A DNA stretch of 64,000 nucleotides from Parcubacteria group bacterium Gr01-1014_17 (GTDB lineage: Bacteria; Patescibacteriota; Minisyncoccia; Phycocordibacterales; UBA10002), in assembly GCA_007376285.1 (NCBI GenBank), contig VMFZ01000004.1, forward strand, positions 300 through 64,299. The letters are read 5' to 3'. The translations under genes and the position numbers were made by a program. Positions 7,298 to 52,102 of the stretch are shown here, piece by piece. The stretch's first letter is position 1, and each line of letters opens with the position of its first letter. The notes beneath the pieces are model-generated. The model was not told the DNA's origin and did no database searches. It saw nothing but the letters and a program-made list of their open reading frames with translations.

Positions 7298-7603
7298 TTA
7301 CAGTAAACGGTAGGTTACATAGTGGCCTACCTTACCCACTTGCTCCACCTTGCCCTCGCGCTCAAGTTCGTCTAAGTAGCGCACAGCGGTGCGTGGAGAT
7401 ACGCCGAGCGCGGCGCGGATTTCGGTGTTGGAGAGTTCGCGTTTATCTTGAAAAAGAGAAAGTATTTTTTGCTTGCGCGCCTGTTTTTGCGACGCTGTCT
7501 CAATCGCCGAGGCACAAATACCGACAACCTGCTCCCTCGTTCTCCTTGAGAGCAAAAGAACAATAACAACAATCCCGATGATGATTAAAATTATTTGCGT
7601 CAT
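7298..7603 (-). CDS. small membrane-anchored winged-helix DNA-binding protein; last gene of the R-M island operon
   Basis: N-terminal TM helix plus wHTH NTEIRAALGVSPRTAVRYLDELEREGKV. It lies 9 nt downstream of the res stop. Confidence 0.5.
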   Translation of the reverse strand: MTQIILIIIGIVVIVLLLSRRTREQVVGICASAIETASQKQARKQKILSLFQDKRELSNTEIRAALGVSPRTAVRYLDELEREGKVEQVGKVGHYVTYRLL

Positions 7604-7612
7604 TGGGTTAGT

Positions 7613-9922
7613 TTATTTATGCTTTTTTATCGTCTCAACAATGTCGTTTGTTTTCACCTTTTCCGCCAGCAAAAATTGAAACCGCTCACCGCTCAGTTCC
7701 GCCCATTTCTCGCCAAGTTCTTTTTTATAGTTCGTATCTTCCGAACCTTTCAGTTGTCCGCCTTTGTATTCAATTAAAAAGATATCTCCATTTTTTGTAC
7801 TTACCACGAAGTCGGCGAAAAATCGCGCCTTTTTCCAGCCGCTCAAACAGAAACCACTGTCTTTCGGATTTCGCACCCACCATTCAACATTTTCCAAATT
7901 ATCAATCTTTTTTATGAACTCAATCTCTTCTTTGTTTAAGTAGTCCGCTTTATCGTAGACGCACTTGCTGAACGGTTCGCGTGAAATACGCGCAAAAGAA
8001 AACTCTTGCGGGAAAACAAAACTCTCCCCATTTGATTTCAGCATCCCTTTTTTCTCTAAATCCACAAATCGCTTTCGCGCCACTTTCTCAATAATCGCAT
8101 CAAGCGCGACATCTAGTTTTTCTTTTAATTCATATCGCACGCGATTGAGCGTCTTAAGCGACACTCCTTCCTTTTGAAGCAACCCAGCCAGCACGCGCCC
8201 AACGAACGCTGACATTTCTTTCTGCGAAATAAACTCTCGTCTTACTTTCTTACAGAGCCACGCGATAAGCCGTTCAATGTTTTCTCCTCCCCATTCGTCA
8301 GACACAGTGTATGTCCCTAACTTTTCTCTTACCAACTCGCCTTTTCGGTTGAAATCAATTTCAATCATCTCGCTCGCGCCGCTACCGACAGAAAATCCTA
8401 TATCAGCCGCCACTCCCACAAGCAGAGGCGCGTTTCCGATAATATCTTCCACATAGTCAAGTTTCCTCCACACGCCGTTTTCTTTTTGCATATTAATATA
8501 CGGCAATTTTATCTCTTCGCGCACTTTCTTTTGCGCGATACCGCCTCCAAGTGCAACTCCACCGTCTTCAATTTCTATCTGCTCGTAGCCGTTTTTCTTG
8601 AGTGCTTCAATAACTGCATCCGCCGTTTTGGTAAAACTGTTTGTTGCACCGAACACATACGCTTTGTTAAGTTCCTCCGCCGCGTGCTCCCGAACATACG
8701 GCAAACGCATTACCCGCCCGATGGTTTGCTCCACCGAGAGCGCGGCGCCAAGATTGGAAACAGACACAAGAATATACGCAAAGGGACAGTCCCACCCCTC
8801 TTTAAGCGCATTGACGGTAATAATGTAACGAATCGGGCAGTCGCTCTTCAAGAGTTTTTCCCCATCCGGCAAGTCGTCATTTTTTGCCGTTTTAATCGCA
8901 ATTTCTCCTTCATCTATTCTCGCCTCATCAACCAGAAACTTCTTAATCTGCTGAACAAACACCCGTTTTTCGCTCTCTTTTTCTTGCTCCGCCTGTATGA
9001 GCATAATCGGGCGAATATATCCGGTTTTGTTTTTGTCTGCCGACTCTTCCAATTCTTTCCGTTTTTTTATGCCCGCCAAAATTGTCTCTTCCCACGGCGT
9101 TACATTCAGCAAACGAATCGGCATCTTTATCATCTTTTGCTTTTGCAATTCCCGCGCCTCTATTTCAAGTAAGATATTGCTCTCGGCGCGCGGCGTTGCC
9201 GTGAATTCAAGCACAAAAGATGGATTCAGCACTTGTATCGTCTCAAAAGACAAGTCCGCTCCGATATTGTGCCCCTCGTCCACCACCACAAATGGATTAT
9301 GCAAACGAATCACATTCGCCAAAGAAAAAACAACCTCGTTATTTTTGCTTTTTTGCAAAAGCGGAGCCACTCTTTCCGGCAAGTCCTCAAAATGCCCCAT
9401 CAGTTCTCCATTGCTCTGAAATACTTTCAGCGCGTCTCTCTGCTCCCGCCGAAACGCGCTCAAGGTTGAAACGACAATGCACACATTTTCCGCAATGTCG
9501 CTTTTCTTGATTGTTTTCGCTTCGCCTACATTAAACACCTTCACCTTCGCGTCAAATCGCGCGTCAATCGCGCTACGAATATCATTAGTGCGATTTTTGA
9601 GCACGCGAAGCGTTTGTTTCAGAATCGCGTCAGACGGCACAAACCACATAACTAAACCAGCATCCCCGCGCTCTTTCAGAAATGAGTCAAAAATAACACC
9701 AACGGAGTGCGCCGCGATGAGCGTTTTGCCTCCGCCGGTCGGCACTTTAATGCATACAATCGGCGCGTTGTTTTCGTCAGAAAAATCCTGATACTGCCGC
9801 TCCGAAACGCTTAATTTTCCAAACGCAAAACGCGCGCCGTCTTCCGGCGGATATTTTTTGCATTCCACTGCATACTCGCGCAGTTTATCCAGACAATCCT
9901 GTTGGTATTTTTTGAGTTGCAT
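7613..9922 (-). CDS. res: Type III restriction endonuclease Res subunit (SF2 helicase plus endonuclease)
   Basis: Walker A VPTGGGKTLIAAH and DEAH box VVVDEGHN; 769 aa. Its start overlaps the gene X stop in a TAATG arrangement. Confidence 0.85.
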   Translation of the reverse strand: MQLKKYQQDCLDKLREYAVECKKYPPEDGARFAFGKLSVSERQYQDFSDENNAPIVCIKVPTGGGKTLIAAHSVGVIFDSFLKERGDAGLVMWFVPSDAILKQTLRVLKNRTNDIRSAIDARFDAKVKVFNVGEAKTIKKSDIAENVCIVVSTLSAFRREQRDALKVFQSNGELMGHFEDLPERVAPLLQKSKNNEVVFSLANVIRLHNPFVVVDEGHNIGADLSFETIQVLNPSFVLEFTATPRAESNILLEIEARELQKQKMIKMPIRLLNVTPWEETILAGIKKRKELEESADKNKTGYIRPIMLIQAEQEKESEKRVFVQQIKKFLVDEARIDEGEIAIKTAKNDDLPDGEKLLKSDCPIRYIITVNALKEGWDCPFAYILVSVSNLGAALSVEQTIGRVMRLPYVREHAAEELNKAYVFGATNSFTKTADAVIEALKKNGYEQIEIEDGGVALGGGIAQKKVREEIKLPYINMQKENGVWRKLDYVEDIIGNAPLLVGVAADIGFSVGSGASEMIEIDFNRKGELVREKLGTYTVSDEWGGENIERLIAWLCKKVRREFISQKEMSAFVGRVLAGLLQKEGVSLKTLNRVRYELKEKLDVALDAIIEKVARKRFVDLEKKGMLKSNGESFVFPQEFSFARISREPFSKCVYDKADYLNKEEIEFIKKIDNLENVEWWVRNPKDSGFCLSGWKKARFFADFVVSTKNGDIFLIEYKGGQLKGSEDTNYKKELGEKWAELSGERFQFLLAEKVKTNDIVETIKKHK

Positions 9923-10755
9923 TATTGCTCTTTTTTTAGATCGTAATAATAGTTGCCAGCATAGGCAGAACCTATTGGGAAATTCTCAAATTCGCTTTCA
10001 GCTAATACTATCAGTGTTCGACTATTTTTTTCATATTTCATTAAGTAATAATGCTTTTCTTCGTCGCCTGTAGAATCTTTATAACCAATAACTAGATTTA
10101 TCAAATTTCCATCTTCCCTTAACCACAAGATATCCTCCTTATTCTCAAGATTCAATTCAATACTTCTGGATATTCCAGGTCCGATATCCCCCATCGTAGT
10201 AGGTACAAGCATTATCCCGCTTTGACCTGTTTCAGGAGCACGCACTTCTAAAGTCAAGAAGTGGCCTGGAACCGCTCTATATTCAAAAGCTTTTTGTCCC
10301 AAATCAGGACTATCTTCAAATTTTGCAAAAACAAAAAACACATCCTTAGCTACAGACTTTCCTGGATTCAAGAGCTTAAAATTTATAGTTGTGTTGCCGT
10401 CATAACTTATGGAATCCAAATTAATATAGGGTCTATTGGCTGCTTTGTACATCTCAACCCCCTGTATGAAAGAGGAGATTCCTACCGAAGCGGTTACTAA
10501 AGTCAGAAAGACCAATGCACAATTTAACCAAAATGTCCTTCTTTGATATTTAAGTAGGATATATTGCTCTATATAACGGGAAGATGGGTCAACATACCAA
10601 CTTGTAGTAGTGCCGTTTTTCTCAGATGTATTAGCGTAACTCTGTTCCTCCTTAGAAGCATGACGAAGAGCGTCAAACAATTCCTTATCTGAAGACTTTG
10701 GGTTGAGCAATTTTGCTACATTTTTACCTTTATTAAACAATTTCGGAATGTTCAT
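9922..10755 (-). CDS. uncharacterised single-pass membrane protein encoded between mod and res (gene X)
   Basis: 277 aa with one TM (FWLNCALVFLTLVTASVGISSF). It is very AT-rich and translationally coupled on both sides. I recognise no homolog. Confidence 0.6.
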   Translation of the reverse strand: MNIPKLFNKGKNVAKLLNPKSSDKELFDALRHASKEEQSYANTSEKNGTTTSWYVDPSSRYIEQYILLKYQRRTFWLNCALVFLTLVTASVGISSFIQGVEMYKAANRPYINLDSISYDGNTTINFKLLNPGKSVAKDVFFVFAKFEDSPDLGQKAFEYRAVPGHFLTLEVRAPETGQSGIMLVPTTMGDIGPGISRSIELNLENKEDILWLREDGNLINLVIGYKDSTGDEEKHYYLMKYEKNSRTLIVLAESEFENFPIGSAYAGNYYYDLKKEQ

Positions 10756-10756
10756 A

Positions 10757-12334
10757 TCAATATACCCTTACTTGGTAAGGGATTTGCTTAAAGGTGATAT
10801 TGTAATCATTCAAAATCTCCTCACTCAAAAGGCATTTATCCGCATAGACAACTTTTTCCTCGCCGTCTTTTTTCATACCTTTGAGCGCGGTGCGGTTCAA
10901 GATATTGTCGTCCTTCTGCTTGAATAAAAGATAGTATTCGGTGCCGCTATGCTCTCCGATAAACGCGCCTTTGATTTTCCGCTTATCAATATGTGAAAGC
11001 GTCTCGGTAAAATACACATAACTCGCCATTTCCTCAAACGACACTTTCTCGTTGATATTTCCGTCCGCCTTAAAAAGCGGTACGCCAAGTTCCGCGTACT
11101 CAAAATCCCCCTTTCCTAACTTTTTCGCTACGCGCCGCACTCGTTCTTGCGTAATCTCCCGCGCAATTTTCTTTTCCATTTCAACCAAAATAAACTTGCG
11201 ATCTCCGCCGTCTTCTTTATTCAATTCCATAACTGCATGCGCTGTTGTGCCGGAACCCGCAAAAGAATCAAGGATAAGAGAATTTTTATCACATGTTAGC
11301 TCAATTAAATACTCAATCAATTCTATTGGTTTTGAATAGTTAAAGACTGCTTCTCCGAAAATATCTTTCAACAGTCTATTTGACTGGGTGGTTGAATATT
11401 TTGAAATAACACCTATTGGCTGAATCAATCGGTCTATCAAGTTACCTTCGTTGTCACAATTTAAGTATTGTTTTGTGTACACAGCCCATTCATTGTTTTT
11501 ATCTTGTTTAATAACAACAAAATCATTTTTTGTTCCCCAAATCAATTTTTCTTTTCCCCATCTCCAACGGCTTATCTTTTTAGAATCCTTATTCGGATAA
11601 ATCAACTTACCATCGGGTGCTTTAATTGGATAGTCTAGGGATTTTACATAACCAAGACTTGCACTATCTAATTTTATTAGTTGATATTTACCTCTTGTTG
11701 AGACATACTTATCGGCCAATTTATAACGGTCTTCGTCTTCAACGGGTAAGCCGAATATTCTTGAATTTTTTATCTCTTTCGCATATACCAAAATATACTC
11801 GTGTTTTATTCTGAAAAAGTTACTGTCAGATTTTCCTCCTCCTTCTTTGTTTTCCCACACAATATTCGCAACAAAATTTTCCGAACCGAAAATATCGTCC
11901 ATAATCATTTTCAGGTTGCAGTGCTCGTTATCGTCAATGGAAATAAAAATTACGCCGTCGTCGCGAAGCAGTTGGTGGAGCAATTTCAAGCGCGGGTACA
12001 TCATACAGAGCCACTTGTCGTGTCGCGTTAAATCCTCGCCTTCGGGACCCACCACCTTTCCAAGCCATTCGCGGATGTGCCCGGAATTAACTCGGTCGTT
12101 ATACACCCACTTTTCATTGCCGGTGTTGTACGGCGGGTCAATGTAAATGCACTTCACTTTTCCGTAATAAAACGGCAGAAGTGCTTTCAACGCTTCAAGA
12201 TTATCCCCTTCCACGATTAAGTTCTCGCTATGCTCTCCGAGCGACAGCGATTTGTTTTTCCGAAGCAGGCGGAACGGCACCTCCTTATCGTGCCCCACCA
12301 CCTTATCTTTTCCTATCCATGTAAATAACGGCAT
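10757..12334 (-). CDS. mod: Type III R-M DNA methyltransferase Mod (beta-class N6A/N4C MTase)
   Basis: DPPY motif IYIDPPYNTG followed by FxGxG ILDSFAGSGTT. The start is taken at MPLFTW, 1 nt after the doc stop. Confidence 0.85.
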   Translation of the reverse strand: MPLFTWIGKDKVVGHDKEVPFRLLRKNKSLSLGEHSENLIVEGDNLEALKALLPFYYGKVKCIYIDPPYNTGNEKWVYNDRVNSGHIREWLGKVVGPEGEDLTRHDKWLCMMYPRLKLLHQLLRDDGVIFISIDDNEHCNLKMIMDDIFGSENFVANIVWENKEGGGKSDSNFFRIKHEYILVYAKEIKNSRIFGLPVEDEDRYKLADKYVSTRGKYQLIKLDSASLGYVKSLDYPIKAPDGKLIYPNKDSKKISRWRWGKEKLIWGTKNDFVVIKQDKNNEWAVYTKQYLNCDNEGNLIDRLIQPIGVISKYSTTQSNRLLKDIFGEAVFNYSKPIELIEYLIELTCDKNSLILDSFAGSGTTAHAVMELNKEDGGDRKFILVEMEKKIAREITQERVRRVAKKLGKGDFEYAELGVPLFKADGNINEKVSFEEMASYVYFTETLSHIDKRKIKGAFIGEHSGTEYYLLFKQKDDNILNRTALKGMKKDGEEKVVYADKCLLSEEILNDYNITFKQIPYQVRVY

Positions 12335-12335
12335 A

Positions 12336-12767
12336 TTATTTTTCAGATTCTTTAAAGTCCTCCATATAAAGACCGACAAACTTCTGTACTGCATCAACCG
12401 TTGCGTCTTTAACATGCGCATTACTCTCCGCAACCCACTTCGCAAAGTTATAGAGTTCTTGATTGCTCACCCGAAGCCATTTCTCATTCTTATACAAGAA
12501 ATATAGGAGCGTCGTAACTGCAATTCTCTTATTGCCATTCTGAAAAGGGTGATTCTTGATGAGAAAATAAAAAAGCACCGAGGACTTTTCAATAAGCCCT
12601 TGATACAGATATTTCTTGTCAAATTTCTGAAAGGGGGCGATAAGGCAACTTTCCAAAATGTTTGGATTTCGTGTTTTAAATTCCGGAATCGGCTCATTCC
12701 ATGTCATCCATTCTTTCGCCAGCGTGTGAGCGATATATTCAACTTCTGTAATAGAAATGGGTTTCAT
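12336..12767 (-). CDS. doc: Fic/Doc family toxin (death-on-curing)
   Basis: Fic motif HPFQNGNKRIAV; 143 aa. Confidence 0.85.
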   Translation of the reverse strand: MKPISITEVEYIAHTLAKEWMTWNEPIPEFKTRNPNILESCLIAPFQKFDKKYLYQGLIEKSSVLFYFLIKNHPFQNGNKRIAVTTLLYFLYKNEKWLRVSNQELYNFAKWVAESNAHVKDATVDAVQKFVGLYMEDFKESEK

Positions 12768-12769
12768 AA

Positions 12770-13039
12770 TTATTCCTTTCCAAGCAAACGAAGTGCTTCA
12801 CCATATTCTCTTATGGTTTTTGCGACAGACGCTTCAATATCGTTCTTTTTTTTGTCTGTTAATTCTCTGCCGAGTATTCGGTTGAGCTCATCGTACGCGA
12901 TAATGTAGTTCCTACCAACTTTTTGCGCTTTAATATCGCCACTTTGTATTTTATTAAATACAGCAGTTCGGCTTATACACAAGATTTTAGCCGCTTCCGT
13001 TGCAGATATATACTTTTGAGTTTTATTTTCCATAGTCAT
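12770..13039 (-). CDS. HTH (excisionase-like) DNA-binding protein, putative antitoxin partner of Doc
   Basis: ISATEAAKILCISRTAVFNKIQSGDIKAQKVGR HTH; its stop is 2 nt before the doc start. Confidence 0.55.
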   Translation of the reverse strand: MTMENKTQKYISATEAAKILCISRTAVFNKIQSGDIKAQKVGRNYIIAYDELNRILGRELTDKKKNDIEASVAKTIREYGEALRLLGKE

Positions 13040-13124
13040 ATTATAATCGTGTTAACTTAATAGTCAAGTGTGAACATATGTTAACTTGTGTATAACCGTA
13101 TTTACCGATACGACATACCGCCGC

Positions 13125-13817: not shown

Positions 13818-13884
13818 TAAATCCTAGCATTTTTTGACACATAAAAACAGCCCCGCTTCGCTCGGGCTTCGGCAGTTACAAGCC

Positions 13885-13929
13885 CCCGCATTTCTTTATA
13901 CCAGTGTTTTGCAAAACACTAGTATAGAT
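13885..13929. repeat. repeat A copy 1 (palindrome ACCAGTGTTTTGCAAAACACTAGT) at the 3' end of the ArsR-like gene
   Basis: near-identical to 14201..14247; it encodes the C-terminal ILVFCKTLV of the regulator. Confidence 0.7.
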
Positions 13930-14168
13930 TCACCGCGGGCGGTGAGCCGGTGAAGTACGCTCGGACCAGAGTTCCGTTTCATAATAAGGCCTGCAATCGC
14001 CAATTTCCGAATGTGGTCGGAAGCATTCTCGTACCCAAGTTTAAGCCGCTTGGTAATAGCGGCAACCGAGAGTTCAGGTTCTTTGTGCAGTAATTCAAGA
14101 ATCTTAATCCGATTGTGATTTGCAAAGCCGCGCACCACGCGCTCCGCTTTCCTATATTCAAAAGCCAT
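13896..14168 (-). CDS. ArsR-family HTH transcriptional regulator (paralog 1)
   Basis: ANHNRIKILELL ... AITKRLKLGYENASDHIRKLAIAGLI; start taken at MAFEYRK. Confidence 0.7.
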   Translation of the reverse strand: MAFEYRKAERVVRGFANHNRIKILELLHKEPELSVAAITKRLKLGYENASDHIRKLAIAGLIMKRNSGPSVLHRLTARGESILVFCKTLV

Positions 14169-14200
14169 ATCTATTATTATACTACCACACATCCCACGTC

Positions 14201-14247
14201 CCCGCATTTCTTTATACTAGTGTTTTGCAAAACACTAGCATAGACAT
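14201..14247. repeat. repeat A copy 2, upstream operator candidate of the ArsR-like gene
   Basis: cccgcatttctttatactagtgttttgcaaaacactagcatagac. Confidence 0.7.
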
Positions 14248-50127: not shown

Positions 50128-50922
50128 TTAATTTTTATTAAAAGAATCCTGTATAGATTTGACGACAACTGATACAAAGTTACTTACGGGAAAATCCTTT
50201 ACATCAAGCAAAGAAAGATATGGACACCAATCCTCAATTTCTAATAGAAGTATTTTATTTGTGTATGTTTTCAAGAAGTCAATTCTTTGAATACCAGTCA
50301 TAGGATTCCACTCAACGAATTGATAAGCCAAAGAAGACTCTTCCGCAGTTGGGAAATATAATTCTAAATCCCATCGCCCACCTTTTGTTTTGAGCGCGTG
50401 ATGAAAATTATTATCTATAAAAAAGAAAGAAATCTCAGAGGCGAATTTTATCTTTGGCTGAATGATATATTTTTTGGCGTCAAAGTATTGTTTGAGGTGG
50501 TTTGTCGGAACAGATACGATTCCTTTTCCGCTTCCACTATAAATTGGTTTCAGGAGGTATTCTTTTGAATCCTGTCGCAAAGCTTTTTCATAGTTATTGA
50601 ATGATGGGACAACTTGATATTTTGTATTATACAATTTTACAAGATATCGTTTTCCTTTTTGATCCCCCATTCCAATAAATCGATTGTTGTGATATATATT
50701 TCTTCTAGAAAAGTTGTGATAGATTTTGAGCATGCGTTCCGAGCCGTTAAAACACCCCCATACATTCCTTATTAAGAAAAAAGAGTTCTTGGAAAATATG
50801 GAATCGTCAAAGAGATCTAAAACTTCTGTTCGAAAATATTTATCCAGGAGCTTAGCCAAAGCAATATCCTCAGATCTAGAATCCTTATTCTTCAGGTTAG
50901 AGATAATGGTTACATTCTCCAT
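50128..50922 (-). CDS. ATP-grasp-like hypothetical protein (AT-rich, probably acquired)
   Basis: KPIYSGSGKGIVSV, IIQPKIKFASE, LLLEIEDWCPY resemble ATP-grasp motifs. Confidence 0.45.
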   Translation of the reverse strand: MENVTIISNLKNKDSRSEDIALAKLLDKYFRTEVLDLFDDSIFSKNSFFLIRNVWGCFNGSERMLKIYHNFSRRNIYHNNRFIGMGDQKGKRYLVKLYNTKYQVVPSFNNYEKALRQDSKEYLLKPIYSGSGKGIVSVPTNHLKQYFDAKKYIIQPKIKFASEISFFFIDNNFHHALKTKGGRWDLELYFPTAEESSLAYQFVEWNPMTGIQRIDFLKTYTNKILLLEIEDWCPYLSLLDVKDFPVSNFVSVVVKSIQDSFNKN

Positions 50923-50973: not shown

Positions 50974-51044
50974 CGGGCCCAGCAGGACTCGAACCTGCAG
51001 TCACGGATTTGGAGTCCGTTGGTTTGCCATTAACCGATGGGCCC
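50974..51044 (-). tRNA. tRNA-Trp (CCA)
   Basis: acceptor GGGCCCA/UGGGCCC, G73, anticodon loop CUCCAAA. Confidence 0.85.
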
Positions 51045-51698
51045 ATATTTTTCTAAAAATGCGGTCGCAGTCATTAAAAGCCGTTTGGCAAGATCGTTGC
51101 TATGATACCGAAGCGACAAACATCCTGGATAATCTTTTTTAATTCGCTTACCGGTATGCGGTTTGCGATACGGTTTAATGAATTGCCCCCTATCTATATT
51201 AGTTACTTTTGACCAAAACGCAATTTGTTTCTCAGCATCATGGTATTCGTGCAAATGTATACAAAGACGAAATTTCTTTTCATCGAGCGGAAACGAGTGT
51301 CGCAAGAGTGTGAGGAATGTCTTAATTAATTTTGGATCAGAATTTGTAAAGCAAGTCCCTTTTGAGATACTTTTGAGCCCTTCGCACCAATATAATAAAG
51401 CACATATAATTCGCTCCACGGAAATATCATTAATTTTCGGAAGAGTTGTCGAAGCTTGTTCTTTATACCGCAGAAGCAAATCTTGAGTTCTTTGTCGTTT
51501 TCTTTCAGCCGAAAGAACTTGACCTAATTTTATTTTTGTCAGCAGTCGCTTCCGCGCTTTATCTGACATTGTAACATTTCTTACCCATGTTGAAACCGAA
51601 CTCTTCGCAACCGCAACTCTCCTAACAATTTCATTTACAGAAAAACCTTTTTCTCGGAGACGAATAGACTGCAATCGTTCTTTAATTTTCAGTTTCAT
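51030..51698 (-). CDS. hypothetical protein with N-terminal HTH (AT-rich); last 5 codons overlap the 5' end of tRNA-Trp
   Basis: KGFSVNEIVRRVAVAKSSVSTWVRN HTH; C-terminal ...YGPIG is encoded by the tRNA acceptor stem. Confidence 0.5.
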   Translation of the reverse strand: MKLKIKERLQSIRLREKGFSVNEIVRRVAVAKSSVSTWVRNVTMSDKARKRLLTKIKLGQVLSAERKRQRTQDLLLRYKEQASTTLPKINDISVERIICALLYWCEGLKSISKGTCFTNSDPKLIKTFLTLLRHSFPLDEKKFRLCIHLHEYHDAEKQIAFWSKVTNIDRGQFIKPYRKPHTGKRIKKDYPGCLSLRYHSNDLAKRLLMTATAFLEKYGPIG

Positions 51699-52102
51699 AA
51701 AAACTAAAAGATAAGTTATATAACCTATACTACCAGTCCATACGAATACAACAAGAAAAAATGGGGATAACTTCCCCATTTTCTACTTTTTCGTCTCTTT
51801 GTGCTTCGTGCGCTTGCGGCATCCCATAGGACAAGCATACGGGACAGGCCAATTGCAAATTATTTCTTGGTTTCCTTATGTTCCGTCCGGACTTTGCACC
51901 AACGACAAAATTTCCTGAGCGTTATCTTGCGCTCCACTTTTTTCTTGTTTTTCTCGCTCCAGTAGTTTATGCGCTTGCACGAAGCGCACGCGAGTTTGAT
52001 TAACCTATCCTGACTCATAATTAAAACATCATAGCGCACTTTTATAAAAAAGAAAAGCCCCGACTCGCTTTCACGAATCGGGACTGTGTATCAAACTAAA
52101 CC

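Follow-up and report, generated by a model that had tools for sequence, protein, structure and literature searches.

Between the methyltransferase gene mod and the restriction gene res in a restriction-modification (R-M) operon of Type III from Parcubacteria group bacterium Gr01-1014_17 lies a gene for a predicted single-pass membrane protein of 277 amino acids (aa), here called ORF277 (ORF, open reading frame) and encoded at positions 9922-10755 on the minus strand of the analysed 64,000-nucleotide (nt) stretch of contig VMFZ01000004.1, referred to throughout as the window. We find that ORF277 belongs to an undescribed protein family that is very small, modular, fast-diverging and restricted to groundwater metagenomes, the genome of the window being that of a Parcubacteria member, and that the junction it occupies is, in this R-M subfamily, a swappable slot dominated by genes of toxin and abortive-infection type. 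Slots of this embedded kind are already known, and both the type of cargo and the family are new. From this position we tentatively, and with somewhat less than even confidence, read ORF277 as an embedded accessory gene of the R-M operon that would add a layer of anti-phage defence at the envelope; on present evidence this is not separable from readings in which the gene is a passenger, or its product tethers the R-M enzyme to the membrane or regulates it, or is an abortive-infection effector.

ORF277 and its family

The gene, the parts of its product and the two R-M genes that enclose it are as follows.

9922-10755, minus strand: ORF277, single-pass membrane protein of 277 aa from an undescribed family (ATG start; stop codon at 9922-9924)
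10534-10755, minus strand: N-terminal domain (N-domain), aa 1-74, predicted to be cytoplasmic and helical (AlphaFold model; alignment of the four members with the domain)
10465-10533, minus strand: transmembrane helix, aa 75-97 (FWLNCALVFLTLVTASVGISSFI) (hydropathy; helix in the AlphaFold model)
9925-10464, minus strand: C-terminal domain (C-domain), aa 98-277, about 180 aa, predicted to be extracytoplasmic (AlphaFold model; alignment)
10757-12334, minus strand: mod, Type III R-M methyltransferase (PF01555, 1.8e-41; PADLOC MTase_III PDLC03644, 1.8e-161)
7613-9922, minus strand: res, Type III R-M restriction subunit, 769 aa (PF04851, 5e-16; PADLOC REase_III, 1.9e-89)

The host operon fits a Type III R-M system, with Mod (N6_N4_Mtase, Type III class) followed on the same strand by Res (a ResIII helicase-nuclease), and the order on the minus strand is a helix-turn-helix gene of the HTH_17 family, a Doc-like gene, mod, ORF277, res and a gene for a 101-aa protein, at spacings of 0-9 nt. 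The mod stop codon TGA (10757-10759) is followed by a 1-base spacer and the ORF277 ATG at 10755, and the ORF277 TAA (9922-9924) overlaps the res ATG (9922-9920) by 1 nt as TAATG. In a second assembly of the locus (L103), an independent gene caller likewise calls a 277-aa gene between mod and res. An initial annotation of this DNA, made from sequence, had described an uncharacterised 277-aa ORF wedged between a Type III mod and res and coupled to them at both ends, and our analysis confirms the ORF, its strand, its neighbours and the tight junctions; its further claim that this is the most AT-rich gene of the window does not hold, as ORF277, with a guanine-plus-cytosine (GC) content of 36.5% against a window mean of 48.1%, is second-lowest to the gene at 50128-50922 (33.5%). 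A search of the flanks for direct or inverted repeats came back empty, and the idea of ORF277 as an element bracketed by insertion repeats was rejected on this ground.

Hydropathy places the sole hydrophobic segment of the protein at aa 75-97 (Kyte-Doolittle maximum 2.13) with no second segment, in line with the single transmembrane helix proposed initially. As the single-sequence AlphaFold model was unusable (predicted local distance difference test score, pLDDT, of 43), it was replaced by a model from an eight-sequence alignment, which reaches a pLDDT of 77.5 and a predicted TM-score (pTM) of 0.58, with pLDDT values of 85-92 over most of the C-domain. The N-domain is modelled as one helix at aa 23-46 and a second one that starts at aa 57 and continues through the transmembrane segment to aa 106 (pLDDT about 90), and a membrane-proximal motif on the cytoplasmic side, RYIEQ...K.QR.T, is invariant among the four members that carry this domain (alignment A3). 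Just past the transmembrane helix a conserved RPY(I/V)NL motif precedes a beta-sandwich that holds a single short helix (EDILWL, aa 206-213). The aligned sandwich core leaves out about 60 of the C-domain residues. We read the C-domain as an immunoglobulin-like (Ig-like) beta-sandwich because of this modelled fold and because repeat proteins that share a 41-residue motif with it consist of Big_9/CARDB/Cadherin-like Ig repeats; its resemblance to Big_9 and CARDB domains thus comprises the modelled fold and the 41-residue local similarity, whereas ORF277 stays below every Pfam threshold. Nothing in the model points to a catalytic, pore-forming or nucleotide-binding fold, and a Kir-channel identity was rejected, the TM-scores of at most 0.31 reflecting the shared helix-plus-sandwich layout only.

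Helix-plus-sandwich proteins also include archaeal pilins, archaellins and FlaF/FlaG. The class III signal peptide of proteins like type IV pilins or archaellins consists of a short, charged N-terminus that leads straight into the hydrophobic helix and carries a prepilin peptidase site; the ORF277 helix, by contrast, is preceded by 74 residues and has no such signal, and the relatives with a short N-terminus read ...KHKIWFEIF..., without the G/A cleavage motif. An N-in/C-out, type II single-pass topology is favoured because export of a charged N-terminus of 74-75 residues that lacks a signal peptide is improbable and because of the charges flanking the helix, the count of lysines and arginines on its N-terminal side being at least that on its C-terminal side in 8/8 family members. 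ORF277 is thus likely of this type. The single helix and the domain sizes of the initial annotation stand, whereas the sides it assigned to them, a cytoplasmic N-terminus and an extracytoplasmic domain of about 180 aa, depend on this charge bias.

Neither Pfam, PADLOC, NCBIfam nor PHROGs gave a usable match for ORF277 (the single PHROGs match has E = 0.26), Pfam was also negative for all eight family members, and PDB sequences searched with C-domain and N-domain profiles yielded nothing significant, which bears out the initial remark that no domain is recognisable. In a word index of 5.8 billion proteins ORF277 matches itself alone, annotated as a hypothetical protein, and the family profile adds a single relative, P0006. 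When 1.84 billion sequences that represent about 15 billion proteins were searched exhaustively with HMMER, seven true relatives emerged (P0002-P0008; E-values 2.5e-65 to 6.6e-11), all from groundwater metagenomes, and because these homologues exist ORF277 is a real gene rather than a chance ORF. Three large repeat proteins (P0009-P0011) were set aside, as they match only over a 29-41-residue motif, at motif level or spuriously. A locus scan with alignment A2 re-found the known metagenome loci and nothing in genomes or viral contigs, a scan of viral contigs with the N-domain alignment found nothing, and tblastn against phage and plasmid collections found no homologue.

The N-domain, transmembrane helix and C-domain occur together in ORF277 and P0002. 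P0007 keeps the N-domain and transmembrane helix ahead of an unrelated, beta-rich C-terminus, which we considered as a diverged family C-domain and rejected (hhalign probability 8%), and P0008 has the N-domain and transmembrane helix with a short tail. In P0003-P0006, about 10-30 residues and a different transmembrane helix precede the C-domain. The gene immediately upstream of each member is given below.

Window, ORF277: Type III mod (PDLC03644)
L014, P0007: Type III mod of the PDLC03644 subfamily (1.4e-30), the two genes overlapping
L015, P0008: Type III mod of the PDLC03644 subfamily (3.7e-62), ending 2 nt before
L102, P0004: Type III mod of the PDLC03644 subfamily (2.9e-98), ending 4 nt before
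L010, P0006: Type II methylase (split), itself after an Eco57I-like gene
L006, P0005: Fic protein of 347 aa (SoFic/PDC-S04), in an island with many toxin-antitoxin genes
L001, P0002: an ORF of 74 aa and a protein of 502 aa that matches GHKL (HATPase_c_3) weakly
L005, P0003: contig too short for the upstream neighbour to be read

Counting the window, a DNA methyltransferase gene stands directly upstream in five of the seven informative members and a Type III mod in four, and in these four the spacing from mod to the family member is 0-4 nt or an overlap. The module of N-domain and transmembrane helix (P0007, P0008) and the C-domain module (P0004) each follow a Type III mod on their own, the former standing beside one in three of four cases (window, L014 and L015). 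Downstream of the family member, the next gene in L014 looks Fic-like rather than like res by eye, with no Pfam match, and in L015 it is convergent. Over the C-terminal 150 residues of Mod, identity to the window is 81% in L014, 80% in L102 and 53% in L015, and since three Mod C-termini (window, L014, L102) thus agree at about 80% of residues, the methylase-linked occurrences are probably related in part by descent. The family members beside these Mods are 43-50% identical in their common modules and differ in module make-up from locus to locus; because their identity is so much below that of the adjoining Mods, the wedged gene diverges or recombines much faster than mod.

The two loci away from R-M genes, L001 and L006, share a synteny block of UPF0102, Mur ligase and Ddl with the family member downstream, and between block and member stands the GHKL-like 502-aa protein in L001 versus the 347-aa Fic protein in L006. 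This arrangement suggests a second variable defence slot adjoining the family gene in these genomes.

The mod-res junction in related systems

The junction was surveyed in 80 loci from GTDB genomes that encode Mod relatives (40-53% identity) and in the four closest metagenomic relatives (61-69%). Res follows mod on the same strand in 80/84 loci; among the 80, the gap between the two genes is at most 60 bp in 51, 60-250 bp in 3 and above 250 bp in 26 (32%). Same-strand inserts with a family match include RhuM (3e-104), Fic (several), HEPN, HEPN_AbiU2, DUF3800, Bro-N, NYN and an AAA_21 plus DUF4276 pair (PADLOC HEC-01A/B), alongside ORFs of no known family; toxin-antitoxin-like ORFs and an apparent insertion sequence (IS) transposase were judged by eye only. 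L098, in synteny the closest relative, has the order RadC, Fic, Mod, X, Res and a Mod with 69% identity overall (82% over the C-terminus); its slot X holds a 262-aa soluble protein and an NYN protein, both unlike ORF277; the slot of L101 holds a 176-aa protein without a family and that of L100 is empty. It is this diversity or lack of cargo in homologous systems that identifies the junction as a swappable slot.

The initial annotation had called a gene inside the R-M operon unusual, which the 26 cargo-bearing loci contradict; what is unusual is cargo of membrane or surface type from a new, fast-diverging family, the only transmembrane segment among the other inserts being that of a 107-aa ORF in L020. 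By blastp and hmmsearch no mod-res cargo of the relatives is homologous to ORF277, and the slot proteins of its close relatives were rejected as homologues on the same evidence. A search of the literature for genes lying in the mod-res junction of Type III systems turned up no relevant work. As a separate observation, the mod-res slot of L052 (8058-9329) carries two identical 191-aa ORFs in tandem, within a duplicated segment of about 700 bp.

Candidate roles

In the literature, embedding of this kind is taken to predict that a gene functions in defence (PMC3710099; bioRxiv 10.1101/2024.01.29.577857; PMC11411939). PrrC sits inside a Type Ic R-M system, and Doc, RhuM and HEPN proteins in R-M operons have been proposed to provide multi-level defence (PMC3710099; PMC12707154), while TgvAB, embedded in a Type I R-M system, has proven anti-phage activity (PMC11411939). 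The "guilt-by-embedding" survey of Payne et al. 2024, covering Hma, BREX, DISARM and Type I R-M, argues that a single embedded instance already justifies defence testing, and its text, as far as searched, mentions neither Type III R-M nor membrane proteins (bioRxiv 10.1101/2024.01.29.577857).

ORF277 resembles such embedded genes in lying between core genes on the same strand, tightly packed and in a variable slot, and like PrrC/RloC, Doc, RhuM and HEPN genes it is an accessory gene of an R-M operon and possibly a second line of defence; its own operon carries a Doc-like gene, as Doc-carrying R-M operons do. Unlike the embedded candidates of the HEC and PDC sets, it has a Type III host and matches none of the 5027 PADLOC models that include these sets, and it encodes a membrane or surface protein, not a nuclease, ATPase or toxin of the cytoplasm. 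Time and again, new immune systems have come to light as genes embedded in defence operons, a pattern that ORF277, as a candidate, extends to Type III R-M. With about a third of the loci of one Type III subfamily carrying mod-res cargo, the junction is an embedding hotspot beyond the systems that the published survey covered (Type I, BREX, DISARM and Hma), and a predicted surface-exposed membrane protein of a family without annotation is a type of cargo new among known candidates.

In the reading that we favour, ORF277, which is translationally coupled with mod and res, would be co-transcribed with them in the apparent HTH_17, Doc, mod, ORF277, res operon, and would supply a second, envelope-level anti-phage layer co-expressed with the R-M system. 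Its surface beta-sandwich would contact something outside the membrane, be it a phage tail, the injection machinery or the cell wall, and this contact would exclude or detect infection. We infer action at the envelope, by exclusion or sensing, because the bulk of ORF277 is a non-enzymatic surface domain. Superinfection-exclusion proteins of prophages (lactococcal Sie2009-type; T4 Imm/Sp) are small and membrane-anchored with an extracytoplasmic part. ORF277, a small protein with one transmembrane helix, would resemble them if its C-domain lies outside the membrane as predicted, and could then act on phage DNA entry; it differs from them in its place in a chromosomal R-M operon rather than a prophage, in an additional cytoplasmic domain of 75 aa and in the lack of a phage-family homologue. 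The initial suggestion of an abortive-infection or phage-exclusion partner is strengthened insofar as the linkage to mod recurs (4/7) and the slot holds abortive-infection and toxin cargo in relatives, and weakened by the two relatives that lie off R-M loci. Its wording of a membrane effector or sensor gains no support from the outer domain, a generic Ig-like sandwich that lacks an enzyme or pore fold.

Several observations weigh against a role in defence at the envelope. The four loci linked to Type III mod are less than independent, as shared descent is possible and several of the contigs come from one sequencing series, and the members of L001 and L006 are not beside R-M genes, being next to a GHKL-like ATPase and to Fic in a Ddl-linked island, respectively. 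No family member was found at the 84 other Mod-relative loci, so the R-M system itself does without ORF277. An ectodomain of Ig-like type is generic, such domains being as typical of adhesins and wall proteins, the topology rests on a modest positive-inside bias, and the phage, plasmid and viral collections contain no homologues that would tie ORF277 to known exclusion proteins.

ORF277 might instead be a non-defence passenger, a surface or wall protein with which an episymbiotic bacterium of the candidate phyla radiation (CPR) attaches or builds its envelope, for instance, and which hitch-hikes in the recombination-prone slot of a mobile R-M operon with no functional link to restriction. Such a history, which we consider unlikely and yet the most serious of the alternatives, agrees with an ectodomain like those of adhesins, chaperones or S-layer-type proteins, with a slot that admits many unrelated genes (among them an IS element and ORFs without a family), with the two relatives outside R-M loci and with the low GC content of ORF277, which suggests separate acquisition. 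It accounts less readily for the five of seven readable members that directly follow a DNA methyltransferase gene, the other two following Fic or GHKL genes in toxin-antitoxin-rich islands, for the separate occurrence of the two modules after Type III mod, and for the translational coupling kept on both sides of ORF277. Were it correct, ORF277 would mark a limit of guilt-by-embedding.

ORF277 could also act within the R-M system: as a membrane tether or regulator, ORF277 would bind the Mod2Res1 enzyme through its N-domain and place or gate restriction at the site of DNA entry, or the coupling itself would tune the dosage of Res. The stop/start overlap makes translation of Res depend on that of ORF277, and the N-domain and transmembrane helix stay beside Type III mod in three of four occurrences even where the ectodomain is replaced or missing. 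Against this, P0004 lacks the N-domain yet directly follows a Type III mod, P0002 has the N-domain yet no R-M neighbour, and with mod and res directly adjacent in 51/80 related systems no such partner is needed; we regard this role as clearly less probable than that of a passenger. A variant to which we give little credence combines both ends of the protein, the surface Ig-like domain sensing phage adsorption or injection and the N-domain recruiting or licensing Mod2Res1 at the entry site. In that variant the swapped ectodomains of the sister loci would be specificity variants from an arms race, and a logic of sensing at the membrane and cutting in the cytoplasm, not described for R-M systems, would follow. 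Zorya ZorAB and Kiwa KwaA are membrane-sensor defence systems, and the ORF277 operon offers a functional analogy in encoding a membrane component together with a cytoplasmic helicase-nuclease (Res); however, ORF277 is neither MotAB-like nor multi-pass in its architecture, and PADLOC gives no match to ZorA, ZorB or KwaA.

Equally improbable in our view is a guarded, PrrC-like abortive-infection effector, kept inactive on intact Mod/Res until phage anti-restriction frees ORF277 to oligomerise and permeabilise the membrane. The position is shared with PrrC-type guardians and toxin cargo in R-M operons (PMC3710099; PMC12707154), and a membrane protein with a cytoplasmic domain open to binding would suit the part, but the single transmembrane helix is moderately hydrophobic, the ectodomain is large, folded and Ig-like, no similarity to PADLOC pore-forming or transmembrane effectors was detected, and the low Kir-channel scores given above offer no help. 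ORF277 also differs from PrrC/RloC in having neither an ABC ATPase nor a HEPN nuclease (Pfam, PADLOC), its model consisting of helices and a beta-sandwich. A cytoplasmic toxin is unlikely as well. Unlike PrrC- or Doc-type cargo ORF277 is membrane-anchored, with most of its mass predicted outside the cell and no enzymatic fold, and none of the eight members matches the Fic/Doc, RhuM, HEPN or NYN Pfam families at E-values up to 10.

Should the envelope-level defence role that we favour prove true, CPR bacteria, whose phage defence is to our knowledge almost unstudied, would possess an envelope-level layer genetically wired to restriction. The family is tiny and confined to uncultivated groundwater lineages, which makes for narrow reach and hard testability.

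Other features of the operon and the window

The remaining features of the operon are these.

12336-12767, minus strand: short Fic/DOC-family protein, 143 aa (PF02661, 7.8e-11; PADLOC PDC-S23, 3e-19), immediately upstream of mod
12770-13039, minus strand: HTH_17 protein, 89 aa (PF12728, 1.2e-06), ending 2 nt before the Fic/DOC start
13040-13067, minus strand: sigma-70-like promoter match TTGACT-16-TATAAT (11/12), the best in the region, directly upstream of the HTH_17 gene
7298-7603, minus strand: 101-aa protein with a transmembrane helix at aa 3-19 and a winged-helix DNA-binding domain (HTH_24, 1.7e-08; weak AbiEi_4)

The HTH_17 and Doc-like genes look like a toxin-antitoxin pair heading the apparent operon. 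Fic genes also flank mod in L098 and adjoin family members in L006 and probably L014. The promoter match is suggestive at most, because the regional count of such sites is not above shuffled expectation, and an Rfam scan of the operon found no RNA family. The longest mod ORF reaches a TTG at 12445, 37 codons further upstream and overlapping the Fic/DOC gene, whereas the PADLOC MTase_III profile match begins at residue 38 of this long ORF, which corresponds to the ATG at 12334 and makes that codon the likely start; one gene caller (L103) places the start about 11 codons past it, and because profile and gene caller disagree the exact position is uncertain within about 35 nt. At the other end, the 101-aa gene begins 9 nt past the stop of res and may close the operon, which by this proximity may encode a second membrane protein; relatives of the 101-aa protein are absent from all other fetched loci, and it was rejected as a conserved partner on this basis.

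Elsewhere in the window, two 50-nt copies (13879-13928 and 14195-14244; 92% identical), each with a palindrome (TATAC[C/T]AGTGTTTTGCAAAACACTAG), bracket the MarR/ArsR-like gene that spans 13896-14207; they could represent operator sites or a small mobile cassette. The lowest-GC gene of the window (50128-50922, minus strand) encodes a 264-aa protein without a family match (weak ATP-grasp, E = 0.038) and adjoins tRNA-Trp; its neighbour at 51030-51779 has a GC content of 37.3%, and the two may form another acquired island. A further low-GC stretch (39117-40826, plus strand; about 37%) holds a 209-aa ORF starting MAYIFLDESGD, followed by three small ORFs, and this 209-aa ORF resembles, by eye only, the DUF3800 protein in the mod-res slot of L028.

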